Origin: a virus
Virus record (IMG/VR): IMGVR_UViG_3300042691_020932
Coordinates: 18,591 to 82,590 of that record
Direction: 5' to 3' (one strand)
DNA: 64,000 nucleotides
A program made the translations under genes and the position numbers. Under the pieces are notes generated by a model, which saw only the letters and a program-made list of their open reading frames with translations, was not told the origin of the DNA and did no database searches. Below are positions 35,933-54,591 of the stretch, piece by piece. The stretch's first letter is position 1. Each line of letters opens with the position of its first letter.

Positions 35933-35961
35933 CATACTATTAGGACACTTTACGGGGCCCA
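35933..35961 (-). repeat. 29-bp intergenic element, copy 1 of 16
   Basis: TGGGCCCCGTAAAGTGTCCTAATAGTATG. Confidence 0.95.
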
Positions 35962-35964
35962 GTA

Positions 35965-36144
35965 TTAGTCACTCACCCTACTTTGAATATCACTGAGAAT
36001 CTCAGCTATCACCTCTACGCTATCCCTATCGTTCTGCTCTAGTTGTTGCATAACGTCTTGCAGTTGTGGTAGGATACTGATGACTAGTTGCGGCACCCTG
36101 ATAATACTCATTTCACCCAAATTCTTATACTTTAGTGGTCTCAT
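35965..36144 (-). CDS. 59-aa putative DNA-binding (ribbon-helix-helix-like) protein
   Basis: Manual translation MRPLKYKNLGEMSIIRVPQLVISILPQLQDVMQQLE... Confidence 0.55.
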   Translation of the reverse strand: MRPLKYKNLGEMSIIRVPQLVISILPQLQDVMQQLEQNDRDSVEVIAEILSDIQSRVSD

Positions 36145-36196
36145 AGTTTTGTTAACATAACTGGGGGTATTTAGGGGGGGTTATGTTAACAAAACT
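36145..36196. repeat. Perfect 17-bp inverted repeat with 18-nt G-rich spacer (operator-like)
   Basis: AGTTTTGTTAACATAAC ... GTTATGTTAACAAAACT. Confidence 0.9.
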
Positions 36197-36208
36197 CACA
36201 TCACTAAA

Positions 36209-36382
36209 TCACCACTTATCAGGACGGCTGAGGTCTTCCACGTATGCCGAAACCTTCTCAGCTGGTTCCAATTTGAATACCTTCTCCCACTCTAATTGAT
36301 GAGGGTCGAAGTCCTCAAAGACTTCAAGTTCCAGAGTGACCCTATAACGCTGCTTCTGGGCTTGACGATATGCAACCGACAT
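36209..36382 (-). CDS. 57-aa hypothetical protein
   Basis: Manual translation MSVAYRQAQKQRYRVTLELEVFEDFDPHQLEWEKVF...; downstream of a sigma70 promoter. Confidence 0.7.
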   Translation of the reverse strand: MSVAYRQAQKQRYRVTLELEVFEDFDPHQLEWEKVFKLEPAEKVSAYVEDLSRPDKW

Positions 36383-36411
36383 AAGTGTGCTCCGTGAGTG
36401 TTACTGAGGAC

Positions 36412-36440
36412 AGTATAAGATGCTGAGGGCATTGTGTCAA
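36412..36440 (-). promoter_or_regulatory. Sigma70-type promoter
   Basis: TTGACA-17 nt-TATACT. Confidence 0.75.
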
Positions 36441-36511
36441 GGTCTGGGGGTATTTATGAGGGGGTTTATATGTGGCGGAGGATGTGTGGGGATTTGATGA
36501 CGCGGGGGTGC

Positions 36512-36540
36512 TTGACATTTCTGGGAGTTTGTGATAGCTT
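36512..36540 (+). promoter_or_regulatory. Sigma70-type promoter, divergent, facing non-coding DNA
   Basis: TTGACA-17 nt-TAGCTT with extended TG. Confidence 0.55.
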
Positions 36541-36730
36541 GCGCGCAAAGATAACAAGACTCTGAGGCATTTAAAGGGCATTAAAAGGGTCTCTAATTGA
36601 TACGAATTCTTATCATTATCACCTCTTAATAACAATAATTATCGCACAAATAAATCACTCAGCTATAATTAAAAAAGGCTTTTTCAAACGTTTTAATACA
36701 TTTTTGACACTAAATCACGTTTTTAGGCAT

Positions 36731-36756
36731 AAAAAAAGACCTCACGAATGAGGTCT
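36731..36756 (-). terminator. Rho-independent terminator
   Basis: AGACCTCA-ttcg-TGAGGTCT plus T run on the minus strand. Confidence 0.8.
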
Positions 36757-36766
36757 CTATGTATAT

Positions 36767-37003
36767 TCAATCAAGTGCTAATCGGTAACGAGCATAATCC
36801 TCTGCATCGCTACGTTTGCGGAATCGTGCTTCTTCTCCTTCAAATCGTAGAGGCAAATACCTATACTTCTTACCTTCCTTAGTCATAACAATTCGGGAGA
36901 ATAGGTGCAGTGAGTAACTACCATCCTCACTTCTTTCCTTCTCTTTCTTGACAATGAAAGGGAGAACTTGTTGATCGTTGAATGACTGTTTAGAGAGTAA
37001 CAT
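36767..37003 (-). CDS. Hypothetical protein
   Basis: Co-oriented ORF ending before the terminator. Confidence 0.7.
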   Translation of the reverse strand: MLLSKQSFNDQQVLPFIVKKEKERSEDGSYSLHLFSRIVMTKEGKKYRYLPLRFEGEEARFRKRSDAEDYARYRLALD

Positions 37004-37017
37004 GACGGAATTGATTA

Positions 37018-37203
37018 TCAGAAACGAATGATAAGTTGATCTAGACCAAAGACATCAGAATCATATGGAGCAGACACTAACTCTACACCTGACTGATAAT
37101 ACATTGGCAAATCATCAAATCCAGAATCACAAATGACGACATCTTGATTGAGTTGATCTTCGGTGAGAGATTGCAGTTGTGAGAGAAGTTCTTTGTAAGT
37201 CAT
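37018..37203 (-). CDS. Hypothetical protein (MTY.ELL..LQ.L..EQL.Q.V family)
   Basis: Recurrent phage N-terminal motif; ATGA coupling. Confidence 0.7.
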   Translation of the reverse strand: MTYKELLSQLQSLTEDQLNQDVVICDSGFDDLPMYYQSGVELVSAPYDSDVFGLDQLIIRF

Positions 37204-37382
37204 TTGGTATAATCAATAATGAGTTGTTCGAGTGTATGAAGCGTCTTTACATTCCAGTTCTTAATATCACCATGAGGAGCATACAGTTTGCTATACCATC
37301 GACCATAAAGTTCAGGATTTAGATGTTGAACTTTCTCTAGAGTGTCAGCAATGAGAAAGTCAATTTGTTCTTGGTAATTCAC
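37200..37382 (-). CDS. Hypothetical protein
   Basis: Co-oriented small ORF. Confidence 0.6.
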   Translation of the reverse strand: MNYQEQIDFLIADTLEKVQHLNPELYGRWYSKLYAPHGDIKNWNVKTLHTLEQLIIDYTK

Positions 37383-37511
37383 TGTACTAATTCAGCAGGA
37401 CTTCCACAGGAGAGATAGAATTGAACCATCCTTTGTGCTTCATCAAGTGTAGGAAAGCTTTGCGTTCTCCATTGTTGTTGATAAGGCGTAAAGTATCGGA
37501 TTGTGAACATT

Positions 37512-37700
37512 TTAGTTTTGATTGTTGGAATAAAGAATGTCTAGCATTTGTTGGTAGTAGTTATCTGCTTCTACCTCACATTGATGAGACTGAGTTGCAT
37601 CTTCAATCTCATATTGTTTCATATTAAGAGAGTGAATCACGTTGTCTAGAAGATTAGTCAGTGCTTCAATCTTTTGTTCGTTAGTCATTACAAACACCAA
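37512..37700 (-). CDS. Hypothetical protein
   Basis: Co-oriented small ORF. Confidence 0.6.
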   Translation of the reverse strand: MVFVMTNEQKIEALTNLLDNVIHSLNMKQYEIEDATQSHQCEVEADNYYQQMLDILYSNNQN

Positions 37701-37842
37701 TCAGCTCCTTCGGGATCGAATAACGTCCAGTTGCTAATATCTTGTGGGATGATATTATCTCGGGCAAAATCTCTTGCTTCTTGTTCAGTCTCAAACTCGT
37801 GAAAGTCGAGAATGTCATCATCGTTTTGGAGAAGATAAGACA

Positions 37843-38160
37843 TCACTTAAGCACCATACCTTCAGTGAAAGGAATTGTGTTGTCATTATCTACAACAAAC
37901 CATTCAAAGTCACGTTGAAAGATACGGGCATCATTTCCGTGAACTTTCAGAATAGCATTGAGACGTGATTTGGTGGTAGGAGTCTTATACCCACAGGTGT
38001 AAAGTTCAAGGAAGGTATCACCAATCGTTGCAATATGATTGCCATGAAGCATAACATATGAAGCATCACGTTCGGGCGAATAAGTTACCTCCGTGTTGTC
38101 ATTTTTCCAGTCAGTGCAATCACAGATTGCTTTGTTCATTTGGGATTCGATCTTTCTCAT
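37843..38160 (-). CDS. Conserved phage hypothetical protein
   Basis: MRKIE..M..AI...W...NT.V...LHGNHIA...TTKSRLNAIL...IFQ.DF.WF; start set downstream of the repeat. Confidence 0.8.
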   Translation of the reverse strand: MRKIESQMNKAICDCTDWKNDNTEVTYSPERDASYVMLHGNHIATIGDTFLELYTCGYKTPTTKSRLNAILKVHGNDARIFQRDFEWFVVDNDNTIPFTEGMVLK

Positions 38161-38178
38161 GGTAGGAAGTGTTGTGGT

Positions 38179-38207
38179 TATACTACTAGGACACTTTGGG
38201 TGGCCCA
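38179..38207 (-). repeat. 29-bp intergenic element, copy 2
   Basis: TGGGCCACCCAAAGTGTCCTAGTAGTATA. Confidence 0.95.
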
Positions 38208-38218
38208 CTATTTGTTAC

Positions 38219-38473
38219 TCAGAACTTTTCGATCCATTGTTGAATCTTTTGCAGTGCAGTTTGTTGATCGTTACACTTACACTTGCGGAACTTGGTAGTG
38301 TTTAATCCCTTGGAAATTAGTTCCAGTTTGCCATCAGCAAGACAGAAGATTCCATAGCGTGAGTTATGAAAAATGTTGTTAATCCATGACTCTTGACTAT
38401 CAGCACTGACCTTAATAAAAGTGGAATTGCGCCCACTTAAAGTGCTATTGTCGATGTGAAGATAAGGGAACAT
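38219..38473 (-). CDS. Hypothetical protein
   Basis: W.N.IFHNSRY motif; co-oriented. Confidence 0.7.
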   Translation of the reverse strand: MFPYLHIDNSTLSGRNSTFIKVSADSQESWINNIFHNSRYGIFCLADGKLELISKGLNTTKFRKCKCNDQQTALQKIQQWIEKF

Positions 38474-38477
38474 AATT

Positions 38478-38660
38478 TCAGAGAGAGAATACTTTATATG
38501 TCACAAGTTGGGAATCTCGATCATACTTTTCATAGGACCAAGTACCTTCGGTTTGTTCAACATAAGAGTGAACATTGTCATTGGAATCTTCTTTCCAAAA
38601 GGCACCAGTTTCAGGTTGGAAGAAATAACCAGAAGCGATAAGTGCGTCAGTGAATGTCAT
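38478..38660 (-). CDS. Hypothetical protein (paralog of 40612-40836)
   Basis: MTFTDALIASGY N-terminus. Confidence 0.7.
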   Translation of the reverse strand: MTFTDALIASGYFFQPETGAFWKEDSNDNVHSYVEQTEGTWSYEKYDRDSQLVTYKVFSL

Positions 38661-38687
38661 TGTGATTTCAGTGTTAAGTAACAATAA

Positions 38688-38894
38688 TCAGGCAGCGATT
38701 GCAGACTCTAGACATACCTCACGGGTTTCCATGATAGCATAATCAAAACCCTCAACTTCTTCTAGGTGCTTTTGATAAGCAACAGCAGCAGAGAAACAAT
38801 CAAACAAGCGGAGAGATTTGAAGTTTTCACCTTCATAATCATAACCACCGATTACAGCGTAGACTTTCATTTCGGACATTTGGGAAGCGTTCAT
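38688..38894 (-). CDS. Hypothetical protein
   Basis: Starts at the ATG of repeat copy 3. Confidence 0.7.
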   Translation of the reverse strand: MNASQMSEMKVYAVIGGYDYEGENFKSLRLFDCFSAAVAYQKHLEEVEGFDYAIMETREVCLESAIAA

Positions 38895-38920
38895 ACTACT
38901 AGGACACTTTGGGTGGCCCA
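38892..38920 (-). repeat. 29-bp intergenic element, copy 3
   Basis: TGGGCCACCCAAAGTGTCCTAGTAGTATG. Confidence 0.95.
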
Positions 38921-39099
38921 GTGTTTATCATCATCAATATCAAGACTTTTTATAATCTCGATTCATTGCAGCAACTTGATAGGATGAACGTGCCACAATT
39001 TCATTCCTAGAAGTGTGTTGAGATTGTGCGCGATGATTATATCCTACCCACACAAAACCTTGTGTTTTAAGGTCACATGCAACATTGTAAATCATGAGA

Positions 39100-39333
39100 T
39101 CAAGAATAGTAAAGATTTGCAATTTCATTGCGAAGACGATTCAGAGTCTCCCAGTTTGAAATATATCCAACCTCGGAAGAGATGCTATCATCGAAGGTCG
39201 CATATCCAAGGACATCGACAATATCGTTCACATACAATCCTTGGTGAGCATTGAGTTCTTCATCATCAAACTGGTTGAAGTAACGAACCAGAAAGTTGAG
39301 TGCTTCAGTGTAAAGTTCTTGAGTCATTTGCAT
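39100..39333 (-). CDS. Hypothetical protein
   Basis: Co-oriented small ORF. Confidence 0.6.
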   Translation of the reverse strand: MQMTQELYTEALNFLVRYFNQFDDEELNAHQGLYVNDIVDVLGYATFDDSISSEVGYISNWETLNRLRNEIANLYYS

Positions 39334-39351
39334 TTGATAGTATTTGGCAAT

Positions 39352-39519
39352 TCAGCGAAGTGTCAGAGAGCGAGTATCAATCCAAACACCTTTATCAGTA
39401 CCCATTCGGAAACTATGATCCCACACAAAGTGTGTCGCTTCCTGATTGGTAAGAATAAACTGTTTGCAGAGAATCTCTACTGCTTCAAAGATATTTGAGA
39501 ATCGGAGAGTTGTAGACAT
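39352..39519 (-). CDS. Hypothetical protein
   Basis: First gene after repeat copy 4. Confidence 0.6.
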   Translation of the reverse strand: MSTTLRFSNIFEAVEILCKQFILTNQEATHFVWDHSFRMGTDKGVWIDTRSLTLR

Positions 39520-39540
39520 TTTGGGAAGTCTGTAAGGGGT

Positions 39541-39569
39541 TATACTACTAGGACACTTTGGGTGGCCCA
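39541..39569 (-). repeat. 29-bp intergenic element, copy 4
   Basis: TGGGCCACCCAAAGTGTCCTAGTAGTATA. Confidence 0.95.
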
Positions 39570-39716
39570 CTAATCATTTGAAACTAAAATCGTCGGACCT
39601 TCAACTTGACAAAACTCCAACAGATAGTAATCAATAGTGATTCCAAGTTGTGATGCTTCAGTATAAAACTGTTGATATTGTTGACCGTCAAGAATAAAGA
39701 AATCAGTTTCAATCAT
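39570..39716 (-). CDS. Hypothetical protein (EA..L...DYYL.EF family)
   Basis: Motif shared with 53012-53149. Confidence 0.65.
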   Translation of the reverse strand: MIETDFFILDGQQYQQFYTEASQLGITIDYYLLEFCQVEGPTILVSND

Positions 39717-39866
39717 GGGGTGCGATAATGTCAGCGACAGTGTGTAATGTGGTTGAAGTTGTGTTACGAACTGCAGGAGAAAGTATAAACGCAACAGCAA
39801 AGATCAGGAGAATTGTCTTCACTTTGTCGGGTGACTTGAATGTTAGACTTTTGCGTGACATTCAAA

Positions 39867-40082
39867 CTAAGATCCACCGTACACATATTCGATTACACCT
39901 GCCTCATCAAGTCCTACAGATTCGATGACAGTGAATCGTGCATAGTTATCAAACTCATCTGCATAGTAATCTCCAACCTCTTTGATAAACAACTCGCGGC
40001 ATTGTTCTTTGTTCTCAGCAGCAATAACTACCATTCCAGAGGTATAATCAGAGAGGACATTGTTAATGATAAACAGTTTCAT
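39867..40082 (-). CDS. Hypothetical protein
   Basis: Co-oriented small ORF. Confidence 0.7.
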   Translation of the reverse strand: MKLFIINNVLSDYTSGMVVIAAENKEQCRELFIKEVGDYYADEFDNYARFTVIESVGLDEAGVIEYVYGGS

Positions 40083-40097
40083 GGTTTTAGTTAAGTT

Positions 40098-40328
40098 TCA
40101 GTCGAAGCGAGAGGATACATCAGGACCAGGATTCTCAAGGTGTGCAACACTATCAGCAACACCTTCAGCAGTTAGTGCAAATTGTACTTTTTTGCCTTCG
40201 TGATAGATGTCAAAGACAGATTGGACGTAAGGTGTTAGGTTGCCTTGCGAATCCCAGGCATTTCGTGTATGCGAAGTCTCAACGATTTCGTAGACTTTAG
40301 AGGTGAGAGGTGAAGTGTAGGTCATCAT
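40098..40328 (-). CDS. Hypothetical protein
   Basis: Starts at the ATG of repeat copy 5. Confidence 0.7.
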   Translation of the reverse strand: MMTYTSPLTSKVYEIVETSHTRNAWDSQGNLTPYVQSVFDIYHEGKKVQFALTAEGVADSVAHLENPGPDVSSRFD

Positions 40329-40354
40329 ACTACTAGGACACTTTGGGGGGCCCA
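40326..40354 (-). repeat. 29-bp intergenic element, copy 5
   Basis: TGGGCCCCCCAAAGTGTCCTAGTAGTATG. Confidence 0.95.
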
Positions 40355-40615
40355 CTATTTGTTTCGGGTGGATTCAGTTGTTACACTCTCCACCAATTCT
40401 TGCAGTTCATCGTCATCATAATAGTGCGACAGTTCTTCCATCAATTCACTCTCTTTATAGTCAATCATACTATCACAAATTGTGTCAATCGCAAATGCAC
40501 ACAAATCGCGCACATCCATATTGTCAACAACTCGCTCAGCATAGAGTTGAACGATCTTGGAAAGTTGGTCTTGAGAAAGTGTCATTTTGTTTGTAGGATT
40601 AGGAAGGGAAATCAT
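40355..40615 (-). CDS. Acidic hypothetical protein
   Basis: Y..R.VD.MD..DL motif; stop abuts the repeat. Confidence 0.7.
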   Translation of the reverse strand: MISLPNPTNKMTLSQDQLSKIVQLYAERVVDNMDVRDLCAFAIDTICDSMIDYKESELMEELSHYYDDDELQELVESVTTESTRNK

Positions 40616-40836
40616 TGAATAACAGTGCTAGTATCAGGATTGAAAGTAACTTCGGAGATCACATCAAAATCATCACTCATCTTGACATAATTCCAGAGAG
40701 TGTCAGTCTCATCATCCACATTTTCCTGATAAAGGTGAATGAAACCGTCATCACCTTGTTTTACATAACAACCATCATAATTCTCATCATCAAATACATA
40801 ACCAGATGCAATCAGTGCTTCAGTAAATGTCATCAT
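40612..40836 (-). CDS. Acidic hypothetical protein (paralog of 38478-38660)
   Basis: MTFTEALIASGY N-terminus. Confidence 0.7.
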   Translation of the reverse strand: MMTFTEALIASGYVFDDENYDGCYVKQGDDGFIHLYQENVDDETDTLWNYVKMSDDFDVISEVTFNPDTSTVIQ

Positions 40837-41115
40837 TTGCAGTAGTTAGGGTTAATTTGGCAGAACTGATCTGCTTGGCGTTCTTGATACTCACTGGTCG
40901 TTGCGTGTGCTATCAAACCAAAGCGAAGACCGAGTGCTAGAGTAGCAATCAAAAAAGCAATTCGCATCAGACTTCATCCCTCATTTCGGTGAGTTTGTCA
41001 TACAGAGCAGGAATATCTGTCTCTGTAAGTTCAGTCAAATAGCACCAATCGCTAGACTCAAGAACTGCAAGAAGAGTATCAATCTCTTCAAAAGTGAGAG
41101 TGGTTTGTGTCATAT

Positions 41116-41301
41116 TCAATCAACGACAGAGTAACAAGCAACCCAGGAAGGAATCCCAGAGAGTGATAACGAACCATTGCGGGCATCGCAATAGTCTTGT
41201 GCGTCATCTTCAGTGTAGAAAGGTCCAATATACTCGGGAGAATTGAGTGCATTGGAATCGAAGCGAACTGTGAATGTTTCAGTCATTGTGGTTTGTCTCA
41301 T
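41116..41301 (-). CDS. Hypothetical protein
   Basis: YIGPF...DA..Y motif; starts at the ATG of repeat copy 6. Confidence 0.65.
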   Translation of the reverse strand: MRQTTMTETFTVRFDSNALNSPEYIGPFYTEDDAQDYCDARNGSLSLSGIPSWVACYSVVD

Positions 41302-41327
41302 ACTACTAGGACACTTTGCAGGGCCCA
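41299..41327 (-). repeat. 29-bp intergenic element, copy 6
   Basis: TGGGCCCTGCAAAGTGTCCTAGTAGTATG. Confidence 0.95.
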
Positions 41328-41334
41328 GTGTTTA

Positions 41335-41661
41335 TCAGTTACGCATCAGGGAAAGATAACCATCCTCGGAGAGAGTATCCTCAGACAGGTTGACATTGCG
41401 AGCACAAGAGATTGCATCAGCAAAGTTATCGAAAGTACCAAAGTTTTTCTGATTACCACACCAGCAACCTTTGTACTCATAAATCATTGCTTCCACAGTA
41501 AATACATCGTTTTTGAAGTTACGATCTACACTGTGCTTGATATAAACTTTCCCGTCATTTCGGGTGTACTTATCGAAGATGGAAGACTTGAAAGTAAGAG
41601 TGAAATCAGTGATGAAATCACCAGTGAGATTGATGCTTTTTTGGAAGAGAGTTTCAGTCAT
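41335..41661 (-). CDS. Hypothetical protein (single gene between repeats 7 and 6)
   Basis: 108-aa ORF filling the inter-repeat interval. Confidence 0.75.
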   Translation of the reverse strand: MTETLFQKSINLTGDFITDFTLTFKSSIFDKYTRNDGKVYIKHSVDRNFKNDVFTVEAMIYEYKGCWCGNQKNFGTFDNFADAISCARNVNLSEDTLSEDGYLSLMRN

Positions 41662-41685
41662 TTAGTGGTTTTTCGTTTGAGTCCT

Positions 41686-41714
41686 TATACTACTAGGACA
41701 CTTTAGGTGGCCCA
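41686..41714 (-). repeat. 29-bp intergenic element, copy 7
   Basis: TGGGCCACCTAAAGTGTCCTAGTAGTATA. Confidence 0.95.
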
Positions 41715-41718
41715 CTAA

Positions 41719-41862
41719 TCATTTGAAACTCACATTCACTCCAACAATTCTAGCAGTAGGATTGCGTACTTTTGCTGTCTCGCGTGCATCTTTTGGAGAG
41801 TTAGCATATACTTCCTCCTTAAAGACTTTGCCACCAACGTAGAGATCAACGATGTACTTCAT
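41719..41862 (-). CDS. 47-aa conserved hypothetical protein
   Basis: Manual translation MKYIVDLYVGGKVFKEEVYANSPKDARETAKVRNPTARIVGVNVSFK. Confidence 0.75.
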   Translation of the reverse strand: MKYIVDLYVGGKVFKEEVYANSPKDARETAKVRNPTARIVGVNVSFK

Positions 41863-41874
41863 GTGCTTGTTTGT

Positions 41875-41991
41875 ATTTTAGAAAAAATTGATGATTTCAC
41901 TGCAGTGGATGACCTTTGACCCGTGTGCAGTGAAATTGCAGAAAAATCAGGTTTTTGGTTGAGTGGTGGACTGGGTTCTCGGTGAGACTCA
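41875..41991. repeat. About 117-bp non-coding structured element, copy A
   Basis: Similar to 48098-48215; internal 11-bp inverted repeat ATTTCACTGCA/TGCAGTGAAAT. Confidence 0.85.
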
Positions 41992-41999
41992 AGTGAGAA

Positions 42000-42194
42000 T
42001 CACAGGGTCTGCCAGTCTTGTGCCTCTTTCAAGTTAGAGTTAAAGAACTTTTGCAAGATAGACTCAATTACAGGTTGCCACTGTTTGTCTTTAATTGAGT
42101 CACGATTCTGTGCTTCGACAAGAAACTTAAGGATGCAAGTCTCTTCGTTTGGAGTGAAGTCAACGCGAGTGAAAGTGTAACCGTCAGTCATCAT
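42000..42194 (-). CDS. Hypothetical protein
   Basis: ATGA-coupled ORF. Confidence 0.65.
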   Translation of the reverse strand: MMTDGYTFTRVDFTPNEETCILKFLVEAQNRDSIKDKQWQPVIESILQKFFNSNLKEAQDWQTL

Positions 42195-42424
42195 TTAATC
42201 CAGCAACTTTTGTTTGATTTGTTTTGTGCTCTTGCAAAAGAACCAGCATCGTGGCATAATTTAGAGAGTTTAATTAGAACCTCACGATCTTTCACTGGAC
42301 GCTCAAATGCAAGATCATTGTTCATACTTAGAGAGACCAAATCTCTCAACAATCTTTCACATCGAAGTGCCTCATTGATTGTAAAGTTTTCGTTGATAAT
42401 TGGGCGAAAGTTCTTCATAATCAA
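42191..42424 (-). CDS. Hypothetical protein
   Basis: Co-oriented ORF. Confidence 0.6.
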   Translation of the reverse strand: MIMKNFRPIINENFTINEALRCERLLRDLVSLSMNNDLAFERPVKDREVLIKLSKLCHDAGSFARAQNKSNKSCWIK

Positions 42425-42587
42425 ACAGGAAAAACTTCTACAGAACGAATAAGATTTGTGCGATCTTGTGCTAGGTAATCATCAGCGATTTTACCACACG
42501 ATGAACGAGATTGAATAATCTTTTCCTCATAAAGATTCTCATCTTCATCAGGAACCCAATACTCAATCAGCATACGATAGGTTTTCA

Positions 42588-42836
42588 TCAGTAGTGTGCC
42601 TCAGAGTAGTCAAGAACTTCGCTGTACTTAGCGATACCATCATAGCAACGCTTTGCCATTTCAGAATCACCTTCAGCGATGTAACCTTTCAGAAACTCAA
42701 AGCAGTATTTGATACGCTGCTCTGGAGTAACTTTAGCGAGTTGTTGTTGCTTACGCTCATAGGCAGCGTTGTAGGCAAACATCTCACGATCTTCGAGGGA
42801 GATGTTGTGAAACTTGCGGTCGGTAGTGTTATTCAT
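42588..42836 (-). CDS. Hypothetical protein
   Basis: Starts at the ATG of repeat copy 8. Confidence 0.7.
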   Translation of the reverse strand: MNNTTDRKFHNISLEDREMFAYNAAYERKQQQLAKVTPEQRIKYCFEFLKGYIAEGDSEMAKRCYDGIAKYSEVLDYSEAHY

Positions 42837-42862
42837 ACTACTAGGACACTTTGCAGGGCCCA
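42834..42862 (-). repeat. 29-bp intergenic element, copy 8
   Basis: TGGGCCCTGCAAAGTGTCCTAGTAGTATG. Confidence 0.95.
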
Positions 42863-42869
42863 CTATTTG

Positions 42870-43703: not shown

Positions 43704-44134
43704 TTAGCGTAGAGATAACCACCAGACCAATCGGCATTCTCCAGCAGATATTCACGATCTTTGATCAATCGCAGATCATAACGAACACCTTTGGCAGGAG
43801 ATTTCCAAGTCGCAGACTTATATACTTCGCCAGTGTTCTTGTCAATGAAGCAATGAACGGAGCGGGAACCGCCACCACTCACAAAGATGACTTTGTGATA
43901 CTTTTTACCAGTCTCAACAGTATAATCAATGTCACACTTGCCAGACTTGAGTTCATCAACCTTGCGAATGTGATACTCTACATTCTCACCACGCTCAGCA
44001 GAAGTCTGATGACCGCGAATAGAATACTGACGATAGTTGTCTTTCAGTGCTTCAATCAGCAGGAGAGTGTGCTTATACACATTCTCTGCGATGGTTTGTT
44101 TTGCTTGTGCTTGCATTTCAGTGGTTGTACTCAT
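43700..44134 (-). CDS. Conserved phage hypothetical protein
   Basis: GKKYHKV...SVHCFIDK.TG.VYK.A.WK.PAKGVRY...W.GGYLY. Confidence 0.8.
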   Translation of the reverse strand: MSTTTEMQAQAKQTIAENVYKHTLLLIEALKDNYRQYSIRGHQTSAERGENVEYHIRKVDELKSGKCDIDYTVETGKKYHKVIFVSGGGSRSVHCFIDKNTGEVYKSATWKSPAKGVRYDLRLIKDREYLLENADWSGGYLYAK

Positions 44135-44160
44135 ACTACTAGGACACTTTGCAGGGCCCA
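44132..44160 (-). repeat. 29-bp intergenic element, copy 9
   Basis: TGGGCCCTGCAAAGTGTCCTAGTAGTATG. Confidence 0.95.
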
Positions 44161-44161
44161 A

Positions 44162-45076
44162 TTACCAACTCTTTGCCATTGTGAAGTTTGCGTGAGAGAA
44201 TGTCTCGCGATCCACTACTTTGAAGATGCCGTAATCGTTTTTGATTACATAACCCTCGTGGAAACTTGCCACATCCCACAGGAAACATTCGATGTCGTCT
44301 TCTTCGTGAATGAAGAGGAACAAATCATCCTTGATTGTCTTCACCAACTTCCAAAGCCGGATGAGGTTCTTGTCACAATCACATTTTTCTGCAATTTCAT
44401 CCTCACAGATGATACGTTGCTCCCTGATGCAAGCATTGATCTCTTTTTTGATTTGTGATGCCTTGCGATCACTCACAAACTCACACAGAGTTGACATTTG
44501 CTTGGCAAACTTACACACATCTGCCAAATCCTCACGATAAGGATTCAGGGACACTGCAGGTTGCACGAATAAGCATTTCTTAGTGCTTGCAAACTTGCTG
44601 GTGATAGGGTGTGCTACCATTTCAGGCAGACGCTCACCAGTGTAGTAAGTATGGGGAGCAACGATAATCTCTTGACGAACAACCTCAGGAAACTTATAGG
44701 TAATGGTGTTGGGTTTGAATGTATCAAGACCCTTACCGAAACCAATCCAATCTCCCTGATACACATTGTTAGTGCGAGGCAGGAAATCCAAGCAATAGAT
44801 GAGGATTTGCGTTACGCGAGGTTGACCGCCAAAATGGGTAAAGATGTCGTCCTCGTTATAGCACAGGCGAATCTTTTGCTTATTAAATGCTGCTTTGGTG
44901 CAGACAAAAAACTTACCATTCTCAGGATTAGTGCCCCAAACAATAGCAGGAGCGCCATCCATCTTGACACTGATAGTAGAATCAGCACTGAACCAATCGA
45001 GCACCGAAAGATCACCATTTAGGATAGAATCTTCGGGATGTTCGATATGTTTGTTTTGCATTGGTTGCTTACTCAT
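44162..45076 (-). CDS. DUF6267-like protein with ATP-dependent ligase/nucleotidyltransferase-type motifs
   Basis: H.EHPED, SVKMDGAPA (KxDG), YQGD, EGYV, K.VDR..FS..NF. Confidence 0.65.
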   Translation of the reverse strand: MSKQPMQNKHIEHPEDSILNGDLSVLDWFSADSTISVKMDGAPAIVWGTNPENGKFFVCTKAAFNKQKIRLCYNEDDIFTHFGGQPRVTQILIYCLDFLPRTNNVYQGDWIGFGKGLDTFKPNTITYKFPEVVRQEIIVAPHTYYTGERLPEMVAHPITSKFASTKKCLFVQPAVSLNPYREDLADVCKFAKQMSTLCEFVSDRKASQIKKEINACIREQRIICEDEIAEKCDCDKNLIRLWKLVKTIKDDLFLFIHEEDDIECFLWDVASFHEGYVIKNDYGIFKVVDRETFSHANFTMAKSW

Positions 45077-45102
45077 ACTACTAGGACACTTTGCAGGGCC
45101 CA
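45074..45102 (-). repeat. 29-bp intergenic element, copy 10
   Basis: TGGGCCCTGCAAAGTGTCCTAGTAGTATG. Confidence 0.95.
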
Positions 45103-45635: not shown

Positions 45636-45664
45636 TACATTACTAGGACACTTTACAGGGCCCA
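45636..45664 (-). repeat. 29-bp intergenic element, copy 11
   Basis: TGGGCCCTGTAAAGTGTCCTAGTAATGTA. Confidence 0.93.
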
Positions 45665-47360: not shown

Positions 47361-47389
47361 TATATTATTGGGACAATTTAAAGGGCCCA
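47361..47389 (-). repeat. 29-bp intergenic element, copy 12 (most divergent)
   Basis: TGGGCCCTTTAAATTGTCCCAATAATATA. Confidence 0.88.
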
Positions 47390-47392: not shown

Positions 47393-47572
47393 TCAGTCAA
47401 TGGGAAGTTTTGCCACACTTTTACCATTCTTGTGATCTGTGATATACTTTCGTGCAGAACTTTCAGTCCTACAAAGTTTCTCAAGTTGCTGACCGTTGTG
47501 GATAATAAGATACTGCTTCCCATAAGGAATAGCAGCATATGTATCCTTAAACATCGTAAATCCTTCTTTCAT
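47393..47572 (-). CDS. 59-aa hypothetical protein
   Basis: Manual translation MKEGFTMFKDTYAAIPYGKQYLIIHNGQQL... Confidence 0.7.
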   Translation of the reverse strand: MKEGFTMFKDTYAAIPYGKQYLIIHNGQQLEKLCRTESSARKYITDHKNGKSVAKLPID

Positions 47573-48099: not shown

Positions 48100-48215
48100 T
48101 TTAGAAAAAATCGGTGTTTTTGTTGCAGTGGATGGGTTCTAGGTCGGTTGCAGTGAAATTGCAGAAAAATCAGGGTTTTGGTCTAGGTGGCCACTGGATT
48201 CTTGGGTGAGACTCA
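48098..48215. repeat. About 117-bp non-coding structured element, copy B
   Basis: Similar to 41875-41991. Confidence 0.85.
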
Positions 48216-49457
48216 CCGCCTCACCACCGATACGGCAGGTTCTCCCTTCTCGAAGATGGTATCAACCACAGACTGAACTGCGCGAGCGGTGCTGATACCA
48301 ACCTTGCTGTAGACAGGAATGCAAACCAGACCGAACGATTTGCTATACTGACTCAGGTTGCCAGGTTCGATACGTCCTTCGCGCATAGCTTTGGCATCAT
48401 CGTGATGCAAACGGATGCAACGTCCGATGGTCTGACTGATGCCAATGAAGTCCATATTACGCAGGAACAGCACTGCTTCCAGACCGCTCACATTGATACC
48501 CTCAGCAAGGATACTGTGGTGAAGAACAACAAACTTCTTATCGTTATCCTTACCCCATGCAGATAGAGTGTCGAAGAATACCTCACGGTTGACCTTCTGA
48601 CCGTCAATAACTGCGCCAGTCTTGGCAGTAATATACATCCAAGAGTATCCGCGACATTCCAGTTGGAAACAGAAATCAGTTTCAGTCACCAGCGATACGA
48701 TTTGCTTGGTTGCCTTAGCACAAATCAGAATCTTGCCGACCTTGTTCTCATCAATCGTTTCCAGCAGATTCTCAGAATCGCGGTCGAAGTTGGTCTGCTT
48801 ACCAGTTACCATAGCCAGTTGCTTGACGATGACTTTGGGGGGCACAATGTAACCACCTTCAACCAACTCAGGAGCAGGAACTTTGCAGATTACCTGACCG
48901 TAAACATCAGCATCATTCATCCCAGGTTTGCCAGTAGCAAGGGAATGTTTGGGAGTTGCAGTGAAGAAATAGCAGCGGCGAGCAGTAGCAGCAAAGTGCT
49001 CTGTTGCAGGGAAAAAGTGACGCTGAACGCTGTTATGTGCCTCATCAAAGTAAATAGTATCCACATCAACTTCTGCCACTTGCAGACGCGACAGAGAGTT
49101 GTAGGTAGTTACAATCAAGCGATGGCTATCAGCATTGGCATCAACCCAGTTACGAATCTCACGGGGGCGAGTAGAGGATTCGTGATGAGTTTCGCCACTG
49201 TGAACGTGCAAAACTTTAGCGTTGGTGATGAACTCCAGGAACTCGCTAGAGAGTTGCTCTGCCAACAAAATACGAGGAGCAACAACAACAATGGTCTGGG
49301 GAGTTTCAGACTGCAACTCACGCAGAGCATCATAGATCATCTTGAGAGTCTTGCCACCGCCAGTAGGAACAATGATCTGACCTTTATCATGCTGTTGCAT
49401 AGCAGCAACACCACGTTCTTGATGCGGACGAAGTTGGATTTGCATTGGTTTCATCAT
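48213..49457 (-). CDS. SF2 (DEAH, ResIII-like) helicase
   Basis: LRPHQ, PTGGGKT, DEAH, TATP, EGINV, QTIGRCIR. Confidence 0.92.
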   Translation of the reverse strand: MMKPMQIQLRPHQERGVAAMQQHDKGQIIVPTGGGKTLKMIYDALRELQSETPQTIVVVAPRILLAEQLSSEFLEFITNAKVLHVHSGETHHESSTRPREIRNWVDANADSHRLIVTTYNSLSRLQVAEVDVDTIYFDEAHNSVQRHFFPATEHFAATARRCYFFTATPKHSLATGKPGMNDADVYGQVICKVPAPELVEGGYIVPPKVIVKQLAMVTGKQTNFDRDSENLLETIDENKVGKILICAKATKQIVSLVTETDFCFQLECRGYSWMYITAKTGAVIDGQKVNREVFFDTLSAWGKDNDKKFVVLHHSILAEGINVSGLEAVLFLRNMDFIGISQTIGRCIRLHHDDAKAMREGRIEPGNLSQYSKSFGLVCIPVYSKVGISTARAVQSVVDTIFEKGEPAVSVVRR

Positions 49458-49485
49458 CTAGTATTAGGACACTTTGCAGGGCCCA
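49457..49485 (-). repeat. 29-bp intergenic element, copy 13
   Basis: TGGGCCCTGCAAAGTGTCCTAATACTAGA. Confidence 0.92.
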
Positions 49486-49488
49486 GTA

Positions 49489-49689
49489 TCAGTTACAAAC
49501 TTTTTTATAGCAGTTCAGTCTATCAATTACACCTTGCATTGTAGCACGATTGTAACCATTTGCAAAGGGTAGACTTCTCTCAGTTTCAGGATTAGAACCA
49601 AAATCAACATTTTGGGAGACATTAACACCCTCTTGAAGAAGGCGAATGACATCATCAAAGACAAAATCAGGGATTTGAATGTAATTCAT
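49489..49689 (-). CDS. Hypothetical protein
   Basis: Start moved to MNYIQ, downstream of the hairpin. Confidence 0.6.
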   Translation of the reverse strand: MNYIQIPDFVFDDVIRLLQEGVNVSQNVDFGSNPETERSLPFANGYNRATMQGVIDRLNCYKKVCN

Positions 49690-49717
49690 TGTTCTCAGTG
49701 GTTTGGTATCTAAAGAC

Positions 49718-49753
49718 AAAAATAGCACGCTTAGAGGTCAATCTGAGCGTGCT
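49718..49753 (-). terminator. Stem-loop with T run (terminator-like)
   Basis: AGCACGCTCAGA-TTGACC-TCTAAGCGTGCT-ATTTTT. Confidence 0.55.
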
Positions 49754-49943
49754 GGTGGGGTTTAATCAACCTCCAAACATTTCATCAAACAACCAATCAC
49801 CAGAACGCTCTTTTTCTTCCCAGACTTTGTTAGCGTTTGCTTCAATCATTGCTCGTTCAATCTTAATGTCAAGGGCAGATTTAGTGCTGAACCAGTTACC
49901 GTTGCGGTCTTGCCAGAGCATAATGTCGTTTGAGTGTTGTCCT

Positions 49944-49972
49944 TATACTACTAGGACACTTTAGAGGGCCCA
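49944..49972 (-). repeat. 29-bp intergenic element, copy 14
   Basis: TGGGCCCTCTAAAGTGTCCTAGTAGTATA. Confidence 0.95.
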
Positions 49973-49982
49973 GTATTTGTTA

Positions 49983-50561
49983 TCAGGGTTGATATTTGGA
50001 AGCGGGAAGATCTCTACCTTTGATGATGTCTGAATGTAAACGCTTACCAGCTCTTACCATCTTCTTCTTCTCATCTCTAGTATATTCGTGCTTGGTTGTT
50101 CTTTCAATCTTCTCACCTTTTGGCGCTTCTTCTTTCTTCTTGGTGAGAAGTTTTGATGCTTGCTTTACTAAATCTTTTGATTTAGGTTTTGCTGCTGGAG
50201 TTTCACCACCAGACTTTGCTGCTCTTCTAGCAAGTGCTGCCTTTCTTCTTTCTTCCTTTGCTGCTGCTAGTTGTCTCTCTCTAGCAGATCCACGCTCTTG
50301 TTCTGGTGCTTGAGTTCTAGTTTCAGAACTACGCTGAGTTCCAATATCTTTGCGTGGTTTGTATTCTTTTGCAGGTACAGTTGTGCCACCTGGACCTCTC
50401 TTAGTTCTGCGTCTTTCAGCTTCAGTCTTCTTGCGTTCTTTACCTATTCTTCCACCCGCACCCTGGCGGGTGATGGATGCACCACCACCCCAACCAAGTT
50501 GTTTAGCGGCATCGGCATCAGATGCTTCGCAAAGAGACATAAACTGTGAAAAGGTACGCAT
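49983..50561 (-). CDS. Basic putative internal head protein with capsid-targeting-like N-terminus
   Basis: MRTFSQFMSLCE resembles the T4 internal-protein leader; K/R rich; CTAAATA at 50588-50594. Confidence 0.6.
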   Translation of the reverse strand: MRTFSQFMSLCEASDADAAKQLGWGGGASITRQGAGGRIGKERKKTEAERRRTKRGPGGTTVPAKEYKPRKDIGTQRSSETRTQAPEQERGSARERQLAAAKEERRKAALARRAAKSGGETPAAKPKSKDLVKQASKLLTKKKEEAPKGEKIERTTKHEYTRDEKKKMVRAGKRLHSDIIKGRDLPASKYQP

Positions 50562-51000: not shown

Positions 51001-51029
51001 TACATTATTAGGACACTTTACAGGGCCCA
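51001..51029 (-). repeat. 29-bp intergenic element, copy 15
   Basis: TGGGCCCTGTAAAGTGTCCTAATAATGTA. Confidence 0.93.
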
Positions 51030-52204: not shown

Positions 52205-52206
52205 AT

Positions 52207-52524
52207 CTAAACAAAAAACGCATCCAATGGAGATTGCTTAAGTGGCATCGCAGTATAATTCCGCGTATCCTTGATATTTACACGAGCACCGATGGACTTA
52301 CTATTGATGGGGGAGAAGTATTCTCTGGTTTTGGTATTGTAGAAGGAGTGTATAGTCCTGGTTGGAGCACCGCCATTATAGACAAACTTGCGAGTGTTGC
52401 ATAACCAAATACTGACAACATTTCGCTTGAAGTCTTCACATTCATAATAGTATCCTTCTGGAGGAGAATATGGAAGAGGTGGAACTTCAACAGTCATAGA
52501 ACTTATCTTGCGACATATACTCAA
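52207..52524 (-). CDS. Hypothetical protein
   Basis: PPEGY.Y...PINSK..G...T..YTAM motif. Confidence 0.7.
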   Translation of the reverse strand: MSICRKISSMTVEVPPLPYSPPEGYYYECEDFKRNVVSIWLCNTRKFVYNGGAPTRTIHSFYNTKTREYFSPINSKSIGARVNIKDTRNYTAMPLKQSPLDAFFV

Positions 52525-52656
52525 TTTGTTTTTGTAGTTGTGAGATTTCTTGTTCCTGTTCTTTAATTTTCTTTTCCAAATGATCTATTCGTTTCTGATA
52601 CTGTTCCTTGAGATCAAACAACATTTTATTTGTGTGAGAAACGTGGTTAGTCATAA

Positions 52657-52887
52657 TCAAGTCGTGAAATGTTCAACAATACGGGATTCTTCGTCATCCA
52701 CAAGTGCAAAACGAGGAGCAGCAACTACACGCTCCATAATTTTACTTTCGTATCGGTCATCATAATCATCTGAGTCTCGTAGAATATCGTGGCACTCAAT
52801 ATCATTTTCAGCAATAACATTGATTACTCCACCATACTCAGAAGAAGGAAAAGGAACCCAGTAGTCAACAATATACAGATACTTCAT
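52657..52887 (-). CDS. Hypothetical protein
   Basis: YIVDYWVPFPSSEYGG motif. Confidence 0.75.
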   Translation of the reverse strand: MKYLYIVDYWVPFPSSEYGGVINVIAENDIECHDILRDSDDYDDRYESKIMERVVAAPRFALVDDEESRIVEHFTT

Positions 52888-52910
52888 TTGTTTTTGTAAA
52901 TTACCTCTTG

Positions 52911-52939
52911 AGTTTAGAACTGTTTGTTTTCTTTGTCAA
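52911..52939 (-). promoter_or_regulatory. Sigma70-type promoter
   Basis: TTGACA-17 nt-TAAACT. Confidence 0.65.
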
Positions 52940-53011
52940 TATCATTGGCAACTATAAGAGAAACTCCTACAGTCAAAAGGATACCAACTCCCATACCAAG
53001 AATAAAAGTCA

Positions 53012-53149
53012 TCAATAAAATTCAGCAAGATAGTAGTCAACAGGAACTTCAAGTTTAGCCGCTTCGCGCTCAACTTCTTTCCAGAACTCTTCTGCTACTT
53101 TGCACATTTCTGCCCGTTTAATGAGGTCTCGGATGTTTTTAGGAATCAT
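53012..53149 (-). CDS. 45-aa hypothetical protein (EA..L...DYYL.EF family)
   Basis: Manual translation ending EREAAKLEVPVDYYLAEFY. Confidence 0.65.
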   Translation of the reverse strand: MIPKNIRDLIKRAEMCKVAEEFWKEVEREAAKLEVPVDYYLAEFY

Positions 53150-53398
53150 TTAGACTTCTCCTTGAGTTGATTTTCTTCGCGTGGATACATTACCTTATAG
53201 TAATATATCATAATGGACGATACAAATGCAACAAGTGCAGTGTAAATTGTAAACGCAAGTCCGATACTCATTTCATTTGTTGAGTTGCTTGTTGGCGATA
53301 GTGCGATTTATAGAGAACACTATCGCGTTGAATTAGAAACACATTCCAACCAAGAATGACTGCAAAACCAATCAATCCCGTGACAATGTACTTTTTAT

Positions 53399-53806
53399 TC
53401 ATTTATTCATTTGAAGTGTAGGAACAGGCATACCACCTTCGGTAGGAACATAGATGGTAACATTACCATTCTTTGCGCCATCTTCGATACCAGTGATATA
53501 CAGGTACTGCAGATACTCACGGTTATCTTTCAGTGAATCACCAATAATCTGGTTTGCTTTGGCAACACCACCAGCGCGAATAATCTCTGCTTCAGCAAGT
53601 TGTTGTGCAGAATCTTTCTTTGCTTGTGCTTCAAGCACTGCTACCTGGCGAGTGTATTCTGCTTTTTGCAATTCTGCTTTACCAGCAAGAGATTGTTGCC
53701 ACACATTGTATTGGGGACCACCAATAAAGATGATACCACCAATCACAACGACACCGATAGCAAGGAGAGCAACACCAGGGTCAATAAATCCGTTTTGTTG
53801 TTTCAT
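53399..53806 (-). CDS. Membrane-anchored SPFH/band-7-tail-like protein
   Basis: N-terminal transmembrane helix, Ala/Glu coiled coil AE..RA.GVAKAN.II..SL, IYVPTEGG.P. Confidence 0.6.
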   Translation of the reverse strand: MKQQNGFIDPGVALLAIGVVVIGGIIFIGGPQYNVWQQSLAGKAELQKAEYTRQVAVLEAQAKKDSAQQLAEAEIIRAGGVAKANQIIGDSLKDNREYLQYLYITGIEDGAKNGNVTIYVPTEGGMPVPTLQMNK

Positions 53807-53912
53807 TTTTGTTCAAACTCCTTTACAATTTCATTAATTCGTTTGTTGGACTGATAATTACGGATAATATCCATAATACAATATCCAAAGGCAAATCCTG
53901 CCATAATTTCAA

Positions 53913-54104
53913 TCATTTAGAAGAAACTCCAGTATCTTTAAAAATCAGATTAGCAAGAGCAATGATAGCAAAGTTCTGCCAGAAGGTCAAAGACACGTTG
54001 AACCAAGACAGAATGAGTCCAAGTAACCACGCTTCAAAGAAAAGTCCAGCAGTAGCAAGGACAATAACAACAAAGACAGCAGCAAGAGTAGTAGAAGTTT
54101 TCAT
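53913..54104 (-). CDS. Small membrane protein
   Basis: Hydrophobic; LTFWQ motif. Confidence 0.65.
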   Translation of the reverse strand: MKTSTTLAAVFVVIVLATAGLFFEAWLLGLILSWFNVSLTFWQNFAIIALANLIFKDTGVSSK

Positions 54105-54107
54105 AGG

Positions 54108-54548
54108 TCAAACGTGAAGAGCAGCAGAGGGGATTTCAACAACTTCGGGAAGTTTGCTTTCTACATAACAGTTCATATTATAGCACACCCATTCACCATT
54201 GCGGAAGACATAGTGATACTCTTCACCATTAGCAGGAAGAAGATACTCACAAAGGTCAGCATCAAGGCGAGGAGGGCAATTTTCACCGCGCTGAGAGTAG
54301 TATTGGGGCCCATATTTTTGAGAACCAACTCCTTTCACACCAGGAATAATTTCTTCATTAGTCCAACATTCTTCGGACCAGCAAGAACTCATATCACCAC
54401 CATCAATCAGTTCGGCAACTTGTTGACGAGTGTTGTAATGAGTCTTCAGAATACGACCCAACCATTCGGGATACGAATCCCAATGGTGGTACACAGAGAG
54501 AATAGAACCGTTTTTGAGTTCAAGACCGATGCGACCCCGAGTTGACAT
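54108..54548 (-). CDS. Conserved phage hypothetical protein (M.TR.RIG...Y.HWD.YP..LG family)
   Basis: Recurrent motif; first gene after repeat 16. Confidence 0.8.
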   Translation of the reverse strand: MSTRGRIGLELKNGSILSVYHHWDSYPEWLGRILKTHYNTRQQVAELIDGGDMSSCWSEECWTNEEIIPGVKGVGSQKYGPQYYSQRGENCPPRLDADLCEYLLPANGEEYHYVFRNGEWVCYNMNCYVESKLPEVVEIPSAALHV

Positions 54549-54562
54549 TTAAGTGATGTGCT

Positions 54563-54591
54563 TACATTACTAGGACACTTTCAGGGGCCCA
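54563..54591 (-). repeat. 29-bp intergenic element, copy 16
   Basis: TGGGCCCCTGAAAGTGTCCTAGTAATGTA. Confidence 0.93.

Follow-up and report, generated by a model that had tools for sequence, protein, structure and literature searches.

The question raised by the locus described here is why one short sequence should recur in front of gene after gene within a single part of a phage genome. We analysed a window of 64,000 nucleotides, bases 18591-82590 of the 82,590-bp contig IMGVR_UViG_3300042691_020932, in which a 29-bp element stands 16 times between small genes (positions given below are window positions). Judging from sequence and comparison with relatives, we think it probable that a clade of T4-like cyanophages has a lineage-specific promoter, that the 16 elements are copies of it and that they double as seams for general recombination. 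The clade would comprise the marine phages S-SM2 and SynMITS9220M01 and many uncultured freshwater relatives, and the putative promoters would stand before the accessory or early-type gene cassettes of the hyperplastic region.

The element, its distribution and its start codons

A scan of the window with the pattern TGGGCC-N4-AAAGTGTCC, in which up to two mismatches were allowed, gave 16 matches, 15 of them exact and one with a single mismatch (47371-47389). All 16 copies lie on the minus strand, and 0.04 were expected in shuffled sequence. The same strand carries all sizeable open reading frames (ORFs) of the contig, so the elements run in the direction of the genes. The short consensus of the element is TGGGCC-N4-AAAGTGTCC-TAGTAGTAT, and the aligned copies extend it to about 35 nt, (A)(C/G)TGGGCC-N4-AAAGTGTCC-TAGTAGTAT-(G/A)A-(GCAC); element positions are counted from the T of TGGGCC as 0. 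Pairs of copies in the window have exact runs of up to 35 nt in common. With a position weight matrix (PWM) made from the 16 copies, these 16 sites score 46-61 bits, and the rest of the 82,590-bp contig does not exceed 12 bits. A first-pass annotation of this DNA had listed 16 copies in one orientation and none outside their block; the number is borne out by the pattern scan and the PWM, and the absence elsewhere holds for the full contig.

Each of the 16 copies begins 0-19 nt past the stop codon of the upstream ORF, and the intergenic gaps that hold them measure only 29-87 nt. The start codon of the next gene falls within the 3' end of the element in six copies (38920, 40354, 41327, 42862, 44160 and 45102), 2 nt beyond it in the copy at 49485, 17-27 nt beyond it in eight copies and 47 nt beyond it in the copy at 35961. 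The annotation had likewise placed the copies between a stop codon and a next start at most about 50 nt away, which agrees with stops 0-19 nt upstream and starts 0-47 nt on. Its two spacer classes, ACCY in copies 2, 3, 4 and 7 and CTGY in copies 6, 8-11, 13 and 15, were recovered, as were its single-gene intervals 41335-41661 and 44162-45061, the latter holding a DUF6267 gene. Of its module of a nuclease and a methyltransferase at 45667-47390 the second half stands, with a 358-aa protein that matches a PHROG DNA methyltransferase family (4e-18); the nuclease has sub-threshold RmuC/NOV_C matches only.

The element is also found well beyond this contig. Scanning IMG/VR with the exact pattern gave 59 loci on about 45 contigs, and in those loci the PWM recognized 272 sites (193 of them unique), always in a single orientation per locus. 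TGGGCCC, AAAGTGT and TAGTAT are invariant among the contig consensuses, and the stretch between AAAGTGT and TAGTAT varies, being CCTAG, ACCAG or CCCTA. In the relative L050 (IMGVR_UViG_3300042516_002999), six sites carry GCTCACCTCC in place of TGGGCCC-N3. One site in the same locus retains TGGGCCACCC, so that two box types occur in one genome; they could represent two promoter classes or a recent mosaic.

A homologue of the form AAGGGGGGTCGC-NN-AAAG(C/T)GTCCC-TATAGT(G/A)T-AAGCAC, with the G-rich upstream box GGGGGGTCGC at the same distance, occurs in S-SM2. The complete 190.8-kb genome of this phage (NC_015279) holds 12 homologous copies, all on the forward (gene) strand and all within 42.7-58.5 kb, that is, solely in the 16 kb syntenic with the array; a reversed-pattern control gave 0. 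SynMITS9220M01 also carries a homologue of the S-SM2 type, and a blastn search with the S-SM2 version recovered S-SM2, SynMITS9220M01 and one marine single-cell virus record, plus two weak matches in unrelated phages (E=7). The 36-nt element itself gave no blastn match among 50,697 phage records; in a pattern scan of Syn9, S-CREM1 and S-CRM01 the element did not rise above control level, and it was not found in the syntenic region of Bellamy. Literature searches found no description of the motif, and a full-text search for the core sequence returned unrelated papers only. In the S-SM2 genome paper the promoter search was limited to sigma-70, T4-late, Pho and NtcA, and the repeat is not mentioned (PMC3037559).

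Several columns are nearly constant over the 193 unique sites: T22 is present in 192, A23 in 184, T25 in 192, T27 in 183 and A29 in 172, and position 26 is a purine in all 193. Position 28 is G or A, and where it is G the element ends in an ATG at positions 26-28. This built-in ATG is present at 97 of the 193 sites and opens an ORF of at least 40 codons at 90 of the 97; of the 96 sites without it, 35 have this frame open (odds ratio 22, p=2e-17). There is no second in-frame ATG within 40 codons in 24 of the 90 genes with a built-in ATG. Comparison of orthologues shows the built-in ATG to be a real start codon, as their N-termini lie exactly at the element ATG in some genomes and five codons later in others. 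The DUF6267 protein starts MKNTHLEHPED or MQNKHIEHPED at the element ATG in several relatives and reads MSKQP-MQNKHIEHPED here, and a second orthologue pair behaves likewise (MNTTFTVRF vs MRQTT-MTETFTVRF). In S-SM2, three genes (SSM2_070, 071 and 075) are annotated in GenBank as starting at the position of the built-in ATG.

At the sites without a built-in ATG, the genes start at least 11 nt past position 26, with modes at 15, 18 and 21 nt; the interval of 1-10 nt is nearly empty, and the frames of these downstream starts are arbitrary (36:20:32). Such a pattern of distances is as expected of leaderless and leadered mRNAs. In the 21 nt before TGGGCC, two or more reading frames are closed by stops at 66% of the sites, vs 19% of control positions. 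The sequence TGAGTAACAAATAG is an example of this stop-rich stretch, and within the element TAGTAG and T(G/A)A supply further stops in two frames, so that just the frame of the built-in ATG is left open.

A candidate promoter and recombination seam

The model that we propose divides the element into two parts. The downstream core, AAAG(T/C)GTCC-TA(G)TAGTAT-(G/A)A(GCAC), is common to the whole clade and inherited with the gene behind it, and the upstream box, held at a fixed distance, depends on the lineage: TGGGCC(C) here, GGGGGGTCGC in S-SM2 and GCTCACCTCC at the six sites of L050. The promoter would be read by the core of the host RNA polymerase together with a specificity factor, be it an alternative sigma of the host or a protein of the phage; a special factor is proposed because the element misfits the consensus of the host primary sigma. 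Transcription would begin at the invariant pyrimidine-purine step T25/R26, and the cassettes with a built-in ATG, about half of the total, would then give leaderless mRNAs and the others leaders of 11-27 nt. A start at position 26 is favoured because start codons peak at zero distance from it, because this peak is followed by a gap of 1-10 nt and then by ordinary leader lengths, because the pyrimidine-purine step 25/26 is invariant and because conservation continues for about 8 nt beyond. The first-pass annotation had spoken of an expression unit, and the co-orientation, the placement from stop to start, the two boxes at a fixed distance and the frequent built-in ATG all agree with this; promoter activity is what they suggest.

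As direct repeats in one orientation with exact runs of 30-36 nt, the elements would also be substrates for the general homologous recombination of the phage. Recombination between copies would delete, insert or swap whole cassettes with no dedicated recombinase, and it would not be confined to the elements. Several differences between relatives are consistent with this. L059 matches L016 except for exactly one 916-nt cassette that it lacks, and at the joint stands a 36-nt sequence in which the two flanking copies are identical. A block of 1,275 nt is 100% identical between L040 and L059, with both ends 2-4 nt from elements, and the cassette 41335-41717 (element and one gene) is found at a different place in L025 and L050. 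At orthologous sites, variants of the downstream half (e.g. TAATACTAG, TAATAATGTAATCAC) go with the gene, whereas box and spacer are those of the genome. Copy 8, for example, has TGGGCCCTGC as upstream box and its orthologue in L050 has GCTCACCTCC, although the identity over the 200 nt downstream is 97%. These differing histories of the two halves place crossovers inside the shared core.

Of 575 ends of alignments to relatives, 147 are no more than 15 nt from an element, and such zones make up less than 5% of the region; since elements stand at about a quarter of the gene junctions, this figure by itself shows no more than that breaks fall between genes. Where both genes of a pair are present in a relative, they are still neighbours across 32 of 44 motif junctions vs 128 of 156 others. 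Counted per gene present, the neighbour is kept at 60 of 193 motif junctions vs 153 of 353 others, with a pooled Fisher p=0.006 for counts that are not independent. Adjacency is broken at 69% of motif junctions and at 57% of motif-less junctions. The part that the first-pass annotation had assigned to recombination is carried by the cassette difference between L059 and L016 and by the split histories of the element halves, with breaks almost as common at motif-less junctions. Its suggestion of local gene conversion for the clustered spacer variants is unneeded: the ACCC of copies 2 and 3 recurs at the orthologous sites of the closest relatives, so that the clustering is better read as block-wise mosaic ancestry.

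Weighing the alternatives

Several results weigh against a promoter that is also a seam. TGGGCC and TAGTAT, 16 nt apart, have exactly the geometry of the sigma-70 family, for which transcription would start about 8 nt past the built-in ATG, and this conflicts with the ATG as a start codon. The sole sigma-like gene found in the contig and in S-SM2 is of the gp55 type, and no reader protein was identified in either. Neither of them has a match to a T7-type RNA polymerase, in a search in which control genomes also gave no match, so that absence is not shown; T4-like phages are not known to have a T7-like RNA polymerase. With regard to the seams, adjacency per junction is 0.25 at motif junctions (n=14) and 0.38 at others (n=37), a non-significant difference (Mann-Whitney p=0.22). 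Alignment of relatives does place breakpoints on the element in the L016, L059 and L040 cases, but of the 47 unique breakpoints between pairs with 93% identity or more, just 7 are found 10 nt or less from an element. Among near-identical strains from four lake metagenomes, none of the 15 joints listed is at an element, a count that is weak either way because unitigs break at repeats and may hide such joints; the joints seen, for example 47572/48188, 52004/52801 and 37003/37200, fall at motif-less gene boundaries. Finally, where metagenome contigs differ by a cassette, misassembly across the 36-nt repeat could be the cause.

Pfam scans of the small proteins upstream of the array gave no DNA-binding candidate except one AbrB/MazE-like domain. 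It is a C-terminal AbrB/MazE-type (SpoVT) DNA-binding domain (Pfam E=9e-6) in a 177-aa protein (55073-55606, minus), whose gene lies just upstream of the first element in transcription order, and the protein is a candidate regulator. Readings of the element as a sigma-54 promoter, an NtcA site or a Pho box were rejected on spacing or sequence, by eye against consensus sequences.

It seems to us unlikely that the element is an ordinary host-type promoter of the sigma-70 family, with TGGGCC as a weak -35, a 16-nt spacer, TAGTAT as the -10, a start about 7 nt on (position 34-35) and a built-in ATG that serves read-through transcripts only. The distance between the two invariant boxes is indeed exactly 16 nt, and the second is a TAnnnT hexamer (A23 in 184 and T27 in 183 of 193 sites); most cassettes have no terminators between them, which makes read-through from upstream plausible, and an in-frame rule for the ATG could also be selected on a read-through mRNA. 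A start at position 26 is nevertheless preferred, because the sigma-70 start would strip about a quarter of the adjacent genes of their start codon, the built-in ATG being their sole plausible start, and would leave the others with leaders of 3-13 nt; at that quarter of the sites the adjacent promoter would never serve its own gene. Recognition of a -10 also leaves the invariant T25 and the constant purine at position 26 unexplained, and the wholesale replacement of the upstream box in relatives is hard to square with one conserved region 4 of a host sigma. No copy passes a sigma-70 consensus scan at 9 of 12 positions, with TAGTAT at 4/6 and TGGGCC at 3/6 of TTGACA. The statement in the first-pass annotation that the motif has no -35 can accordingly be kept only with a reservation, since TGGGCC lies 16 nt upstream of TAnnnT, in the geometry of a -35 and a -10. 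Sigma-70-like sites are not enriched in the region (60 found vs 48.5 +/- 7.2 expected), nor are terminator-like sites (13 found vs 12.7 expected). Behind one S-SM2 copy, and ahead of the helicase gene, stands a separate promoter of canonical form, TTGACA-N17-TATACT, which suggests that the element belongs to a different promoter class.

A role at the level of RNA, in place of promoter function, is improbable in our judgement; long polycistronic early transcripts would then carry the element as a standard region of translation initiation or as a site of processing. Such a role would account for a start codon at a fixed built-in position in 47% of sites, for conservation from about -26 to +8 around the ATG, which is roughly a ribosome footprint, for the upstream closure of two or more frames and for the lack of a sigma-70 consensus. 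Half of the sites, however, have no ATG, and their genes start 11-50 nt on in any frame; two boxes with a spacer fixed in length but free in sequence are typical of protein-DNA recognition, and the upstream box is exchanged between genomes with nothing compensating elsewhere. DNA folds of eight copies with their flanks gave z-scores from -1.7 to +1.6 with no shared stem, so that no conserved fold or hairpin was found, as the annotation had also noted, and Rfam has no match in the window. We give still less credit, indeed hardly any, to an integron-like system, the analogy drawn in the first-pass annotation, in which the elements would be attachment sites for the capture, excision and reshuffling of cassettes by a site-specific recombinase. 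Co-oriented copies do bound units of one or two genes, one clean single-cassette difference is flanked by two copies, and one cassette stands at different places in relatives. The analogy fails on other counts: the element has neither an inverted repeat nor a hairpin, gene-order breaks are nearly as frequent at junctions without an element, and the observed joint is a simple 36-nt homology such as general recombination leaves. Each cassette also carries a promoter-like signal, which may set it apart from the cassettes of an integron with their one common upstream promoter. Neither the contig nor S-SM2, whose complete genome has the homologous array, yielded a tyrosine or serine recombinase. 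PF00589 (tyrosine recombinase) had no match in the 82.6-kb contig (~38% complete) or in S-SM2 and matched 14 of 14 control genomes, and PF00239 (resolvase) had no match in the contig or S-SM2.

For the lineage-specific promoter that we favour, a more detailed picture can be offered, tentatively and with little confidence. The S-SM2 clade would redirect the host RNA polymerase by means of an early-made or virion-delivered specificity factor, which might correspond in function to MotA/AsiA of T4 or else be a sigma-like protein of a new kind. The promoter would be 26 bp long, transcription would start on the A of the built-in ATG and give rise to a class of leaderless mRNAs, and box and factor specificity would be swapped together (TGGGCCC, GGGGGGTCGC, GCTCACCTCC).

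Genomic setting and known systems

The contig is a fragment of an uncultured freshwater T4-like cyanomyovirus (Kyanoviridae), with a completeness of 38% as estimated by CheckV. Pfam matches in it include T4 gp6, gp8, a neck protein and gp15, a UvsW-type helicase, DUF6267, DUF7717 and one gp55-type sigma domain. By gp15, the nearest cultured phages are the Synechococcus phages S-SM2 (68% aa), SynMITS9220M01 and Bellamy, all Kyanoviridae. The gene order agrees with that of Syn9, S-CREM1 and S-SM2, in which small genes with a methylase and a helicase are followed by gp25/gp6 and a giant baseplate or fibre protein, and the array occupies the whole hyperplastic small-gene stretch, from the UvsW/methylase genes to the baseplate genes. 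Metagenomes of 16 studies, from freshwater and lakes, contain near-identical DNA, and no RNA run was found among the data sets that hold it. The individual copies are listed in Table 1.

Table 1. Copies of the element in the window. Spans are plus-strand coordinates of the 29-mers; the consensus reads 5' to 3' on the minus strand.
Copy	Span	Strand	Spacer	Sequence features	Start codon and gene
1	35933..35961	-	CCGT	TGGGCC CCGT AAAGTGTCC TAATAGTAT	Built-in ATG opens just 9 codons; gene start 35888
2	38179..38207	-	ACCC	Ends ...TATAA, without ATG	Gene start 38160, 21 nt past position 26
3	38892..38920	-	ACCC		Built-in ATG in frame, 68 open codons
4	39541..39569	-	ACCC	35-nt exact run in common with copy 2; 46 nt at 98% identity with copy 7	Gene start 39519
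5	40326..40354	-	CCCC		Built-in ATG starts MMTYTSPLTSKVY...; orthologues begin at the same ATG
6	41299..41327	-	CTGC		In-frame built-in ATG; second ATG 5 codons on (MRQTT-MTETFTVRF)
7	41686..41714	-	ACCT		Heads single-gene cassette 41335-41661, placed elsewhere in relatives L025 and L050
8	42834..42862	-	CTGC		Built-in ATG starts MNNTTDRKFHNISLEDREMF; same in L009, L014 and L025
9	44132..44160	-	CTGC		In-frame built-in ATG (MSTTTE-MQAQAKQ); heads DUF7717 gene
10	45074..45102	-	CTGC		In-frame built-in ATG (MSKQP-MQNKHIEHPED); heads DUF6267 gene
11	45636..45664	-	CTGT	TAGTAATGT variant, in relatives inherited with the downstream gene	
12	47361..47389	-		Most divergent (AAATTGTCC CAATAATAT)	Heads module of a 216-aa protein and a methyltransferase-like gene
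13	49457..49485	-		TAATACTAG variant	UvsW-like helicase ATG at 49457, 2 nt past the usual place
14	49944..49972	-	CTCT	Top PWM score	Gene start 49921
15	51001..51029	-	CTGT	TAATAATGT variant	Gene start 50986
16	54563..54591	-	CCTG	First in transcription order	Gene start 54548

Other signals were noted in and around the array. A second non-coding repeat of about 120 nt is present in two copies that are 78% identical (41875-41991 and 48098-48215, minus). It fills two long motif-less gaps, ahead of the genes 41719-41862 and 47569-48099, and is also found in the relative L008; it has no Rfam match and no convincing common fold. The repeat ends in TTTTTTCTAAAAT(G) and may be another type of promoter or leader. 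The array also holds a near-consensus host-type promoter, TTGACA-N17-TATACT (11/12), and two strong terminator-like hairpins in or beside motif-less stretches (minus-strand coordinates of the promoter and the two hairpins 36440-36412, 36758-36735 and 45367-45338), so that the region mixes at least two types of signal.

Outside the array, the 4,028-aa ORF (18096-30182, minus) is the counterpart of the giant baseplate or fibre protein beside gp6 in Syn9 and S-SM2. An N4-like phage had been considered for this ORF and was ruled out by the Pfam matches to T4 baseplate and neck proteins. A 575-aa protein (8144-9871, minus) contains 148 glycines, with a run of 17 G from GGTGGCGGTGG-type repeats. The G+C content is 29-36% in the structural-gene half (1-33000, with one 43% bin at 8-10 kb) vs 39-46% in the small-gene array (34000-50000).

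T4-like cyanophages are among the most abundant viruses of lakes and oceans, and the timing of their pre-late genes, for which they have no MotA and AsiA, is understood only in part. The element is a sharply defined and easily scanned signal, which marks one class of genes across a whole clade. It is present in a cultured pair, S-SM2 and Synechococcus WH8017, in which start site, timing and reader are directly testable. The built-in start codon and the swappable box make two concrete predictions, through which a new transcription factor, and leaderless translation on a wide scale during cyanophage infection, could come to light. For annotation, the element fixes the start codons of many small ORFs, and its putative role as a recombination seam helps to explain the reshuffling of the accessory-gene region.

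Several known systems resemble the array in part. Like the attC/attI sites of integrons, the elements are short co-oriented repeats that bound cassettes of one or two genes; here, in contrast, there is no integrase and no imperfect-palindrome attC, each cassette has a promoter-like signal, and plain homology explains the exchange. A nearer parallel is offered by the PeSL (promoter-early stem-loop) cassettes of T4-type coliphages and vibriophages, known from RB49/phi1, T4/PST and KVP40/nt-1 (Arbiol et al. 2010; Comeau et al. 2014, PMC4122927). These are promoters that recur across hyperplastic regions and also act there as seams for recombination (PMC4122927; PMC4503421). A PeSL consists of a terminator-like stem-loop and a near-consensus sigma-70 promoter, TTGACA-N17-TATAAT or close to it (PMC4122927). 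Both are short repeated motifs ahead of small ORFan genes in a hyperplastic region, where modules are inserted, deleted or swapped by homologous recombination, and the differences among L016, L059 and L040 are likewise bounded by elements, with breaks also common elsewhere. Unlike a PeSL, the present element has no sigma-70 consensus and no stem-loop, for which the upstream stop, 0-19 nt away, leaves no room; it is also more compact (~30-35 nt), often holds the start codon and has an upstream box that varies with the lineage.

Middle promoters of T4 combine a MotA box with a TAnnnT -10, an arrangement known as sigma appropriation. As in our putative promoter, a box peculiar to the phage takes the place of the -35, the distance to TAnnnT is fixed, and the genes served are pre-late. 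The sequences of the two boxes are unrelated, however, and T4-like cyanophages have neither motA nor asiA (PMC5780444). The repeat of S-SM2 and SynMITS9220M01 has the same core, a G-rich upstream box at the same distance, co-oriented copies and a syntenic location, and differs in its upstream box (GGGGGGTCGC vs TGGGCCC-N3 here) and in coming from phages of a marine host.

Within the same family, Doron et al. reportedly described in 2016 a 'novel regulatory element' of early genes in the T4-like cyanophages Syn9 and P-TIM40. In the loci syntenic with our array, L002/L003 (Syn9, 43-54 kb), L001 (S-CREM1) and L065 (Bellamy), we found a cassette composed of TG(C/A)CAGT-N6-AAGTGTCCAC or AAGGTGGCAC, exactly 29 nt, a -10 hexamer and the leader ATAAGAGTCAAAGG; a host-like -35 often stands between box and -10. 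This, too, is a repeated signal without a sigma-70 character that precedes early-type genes in the same small-gene region, and its box AAGTGTCCAC has the octamer AAGTGTCC in common with the element, a likeness that may or may not reflect homology of the two kinds. The Syn9-type box lies 29 nt from a separate -10, whereas here the box directly abuts TAGTAGTAT. The element and the early-gene element of Syn9 and P-TIM40 belong to one family-wide theme, in which two kinds of signal fill the same region in different lineages.

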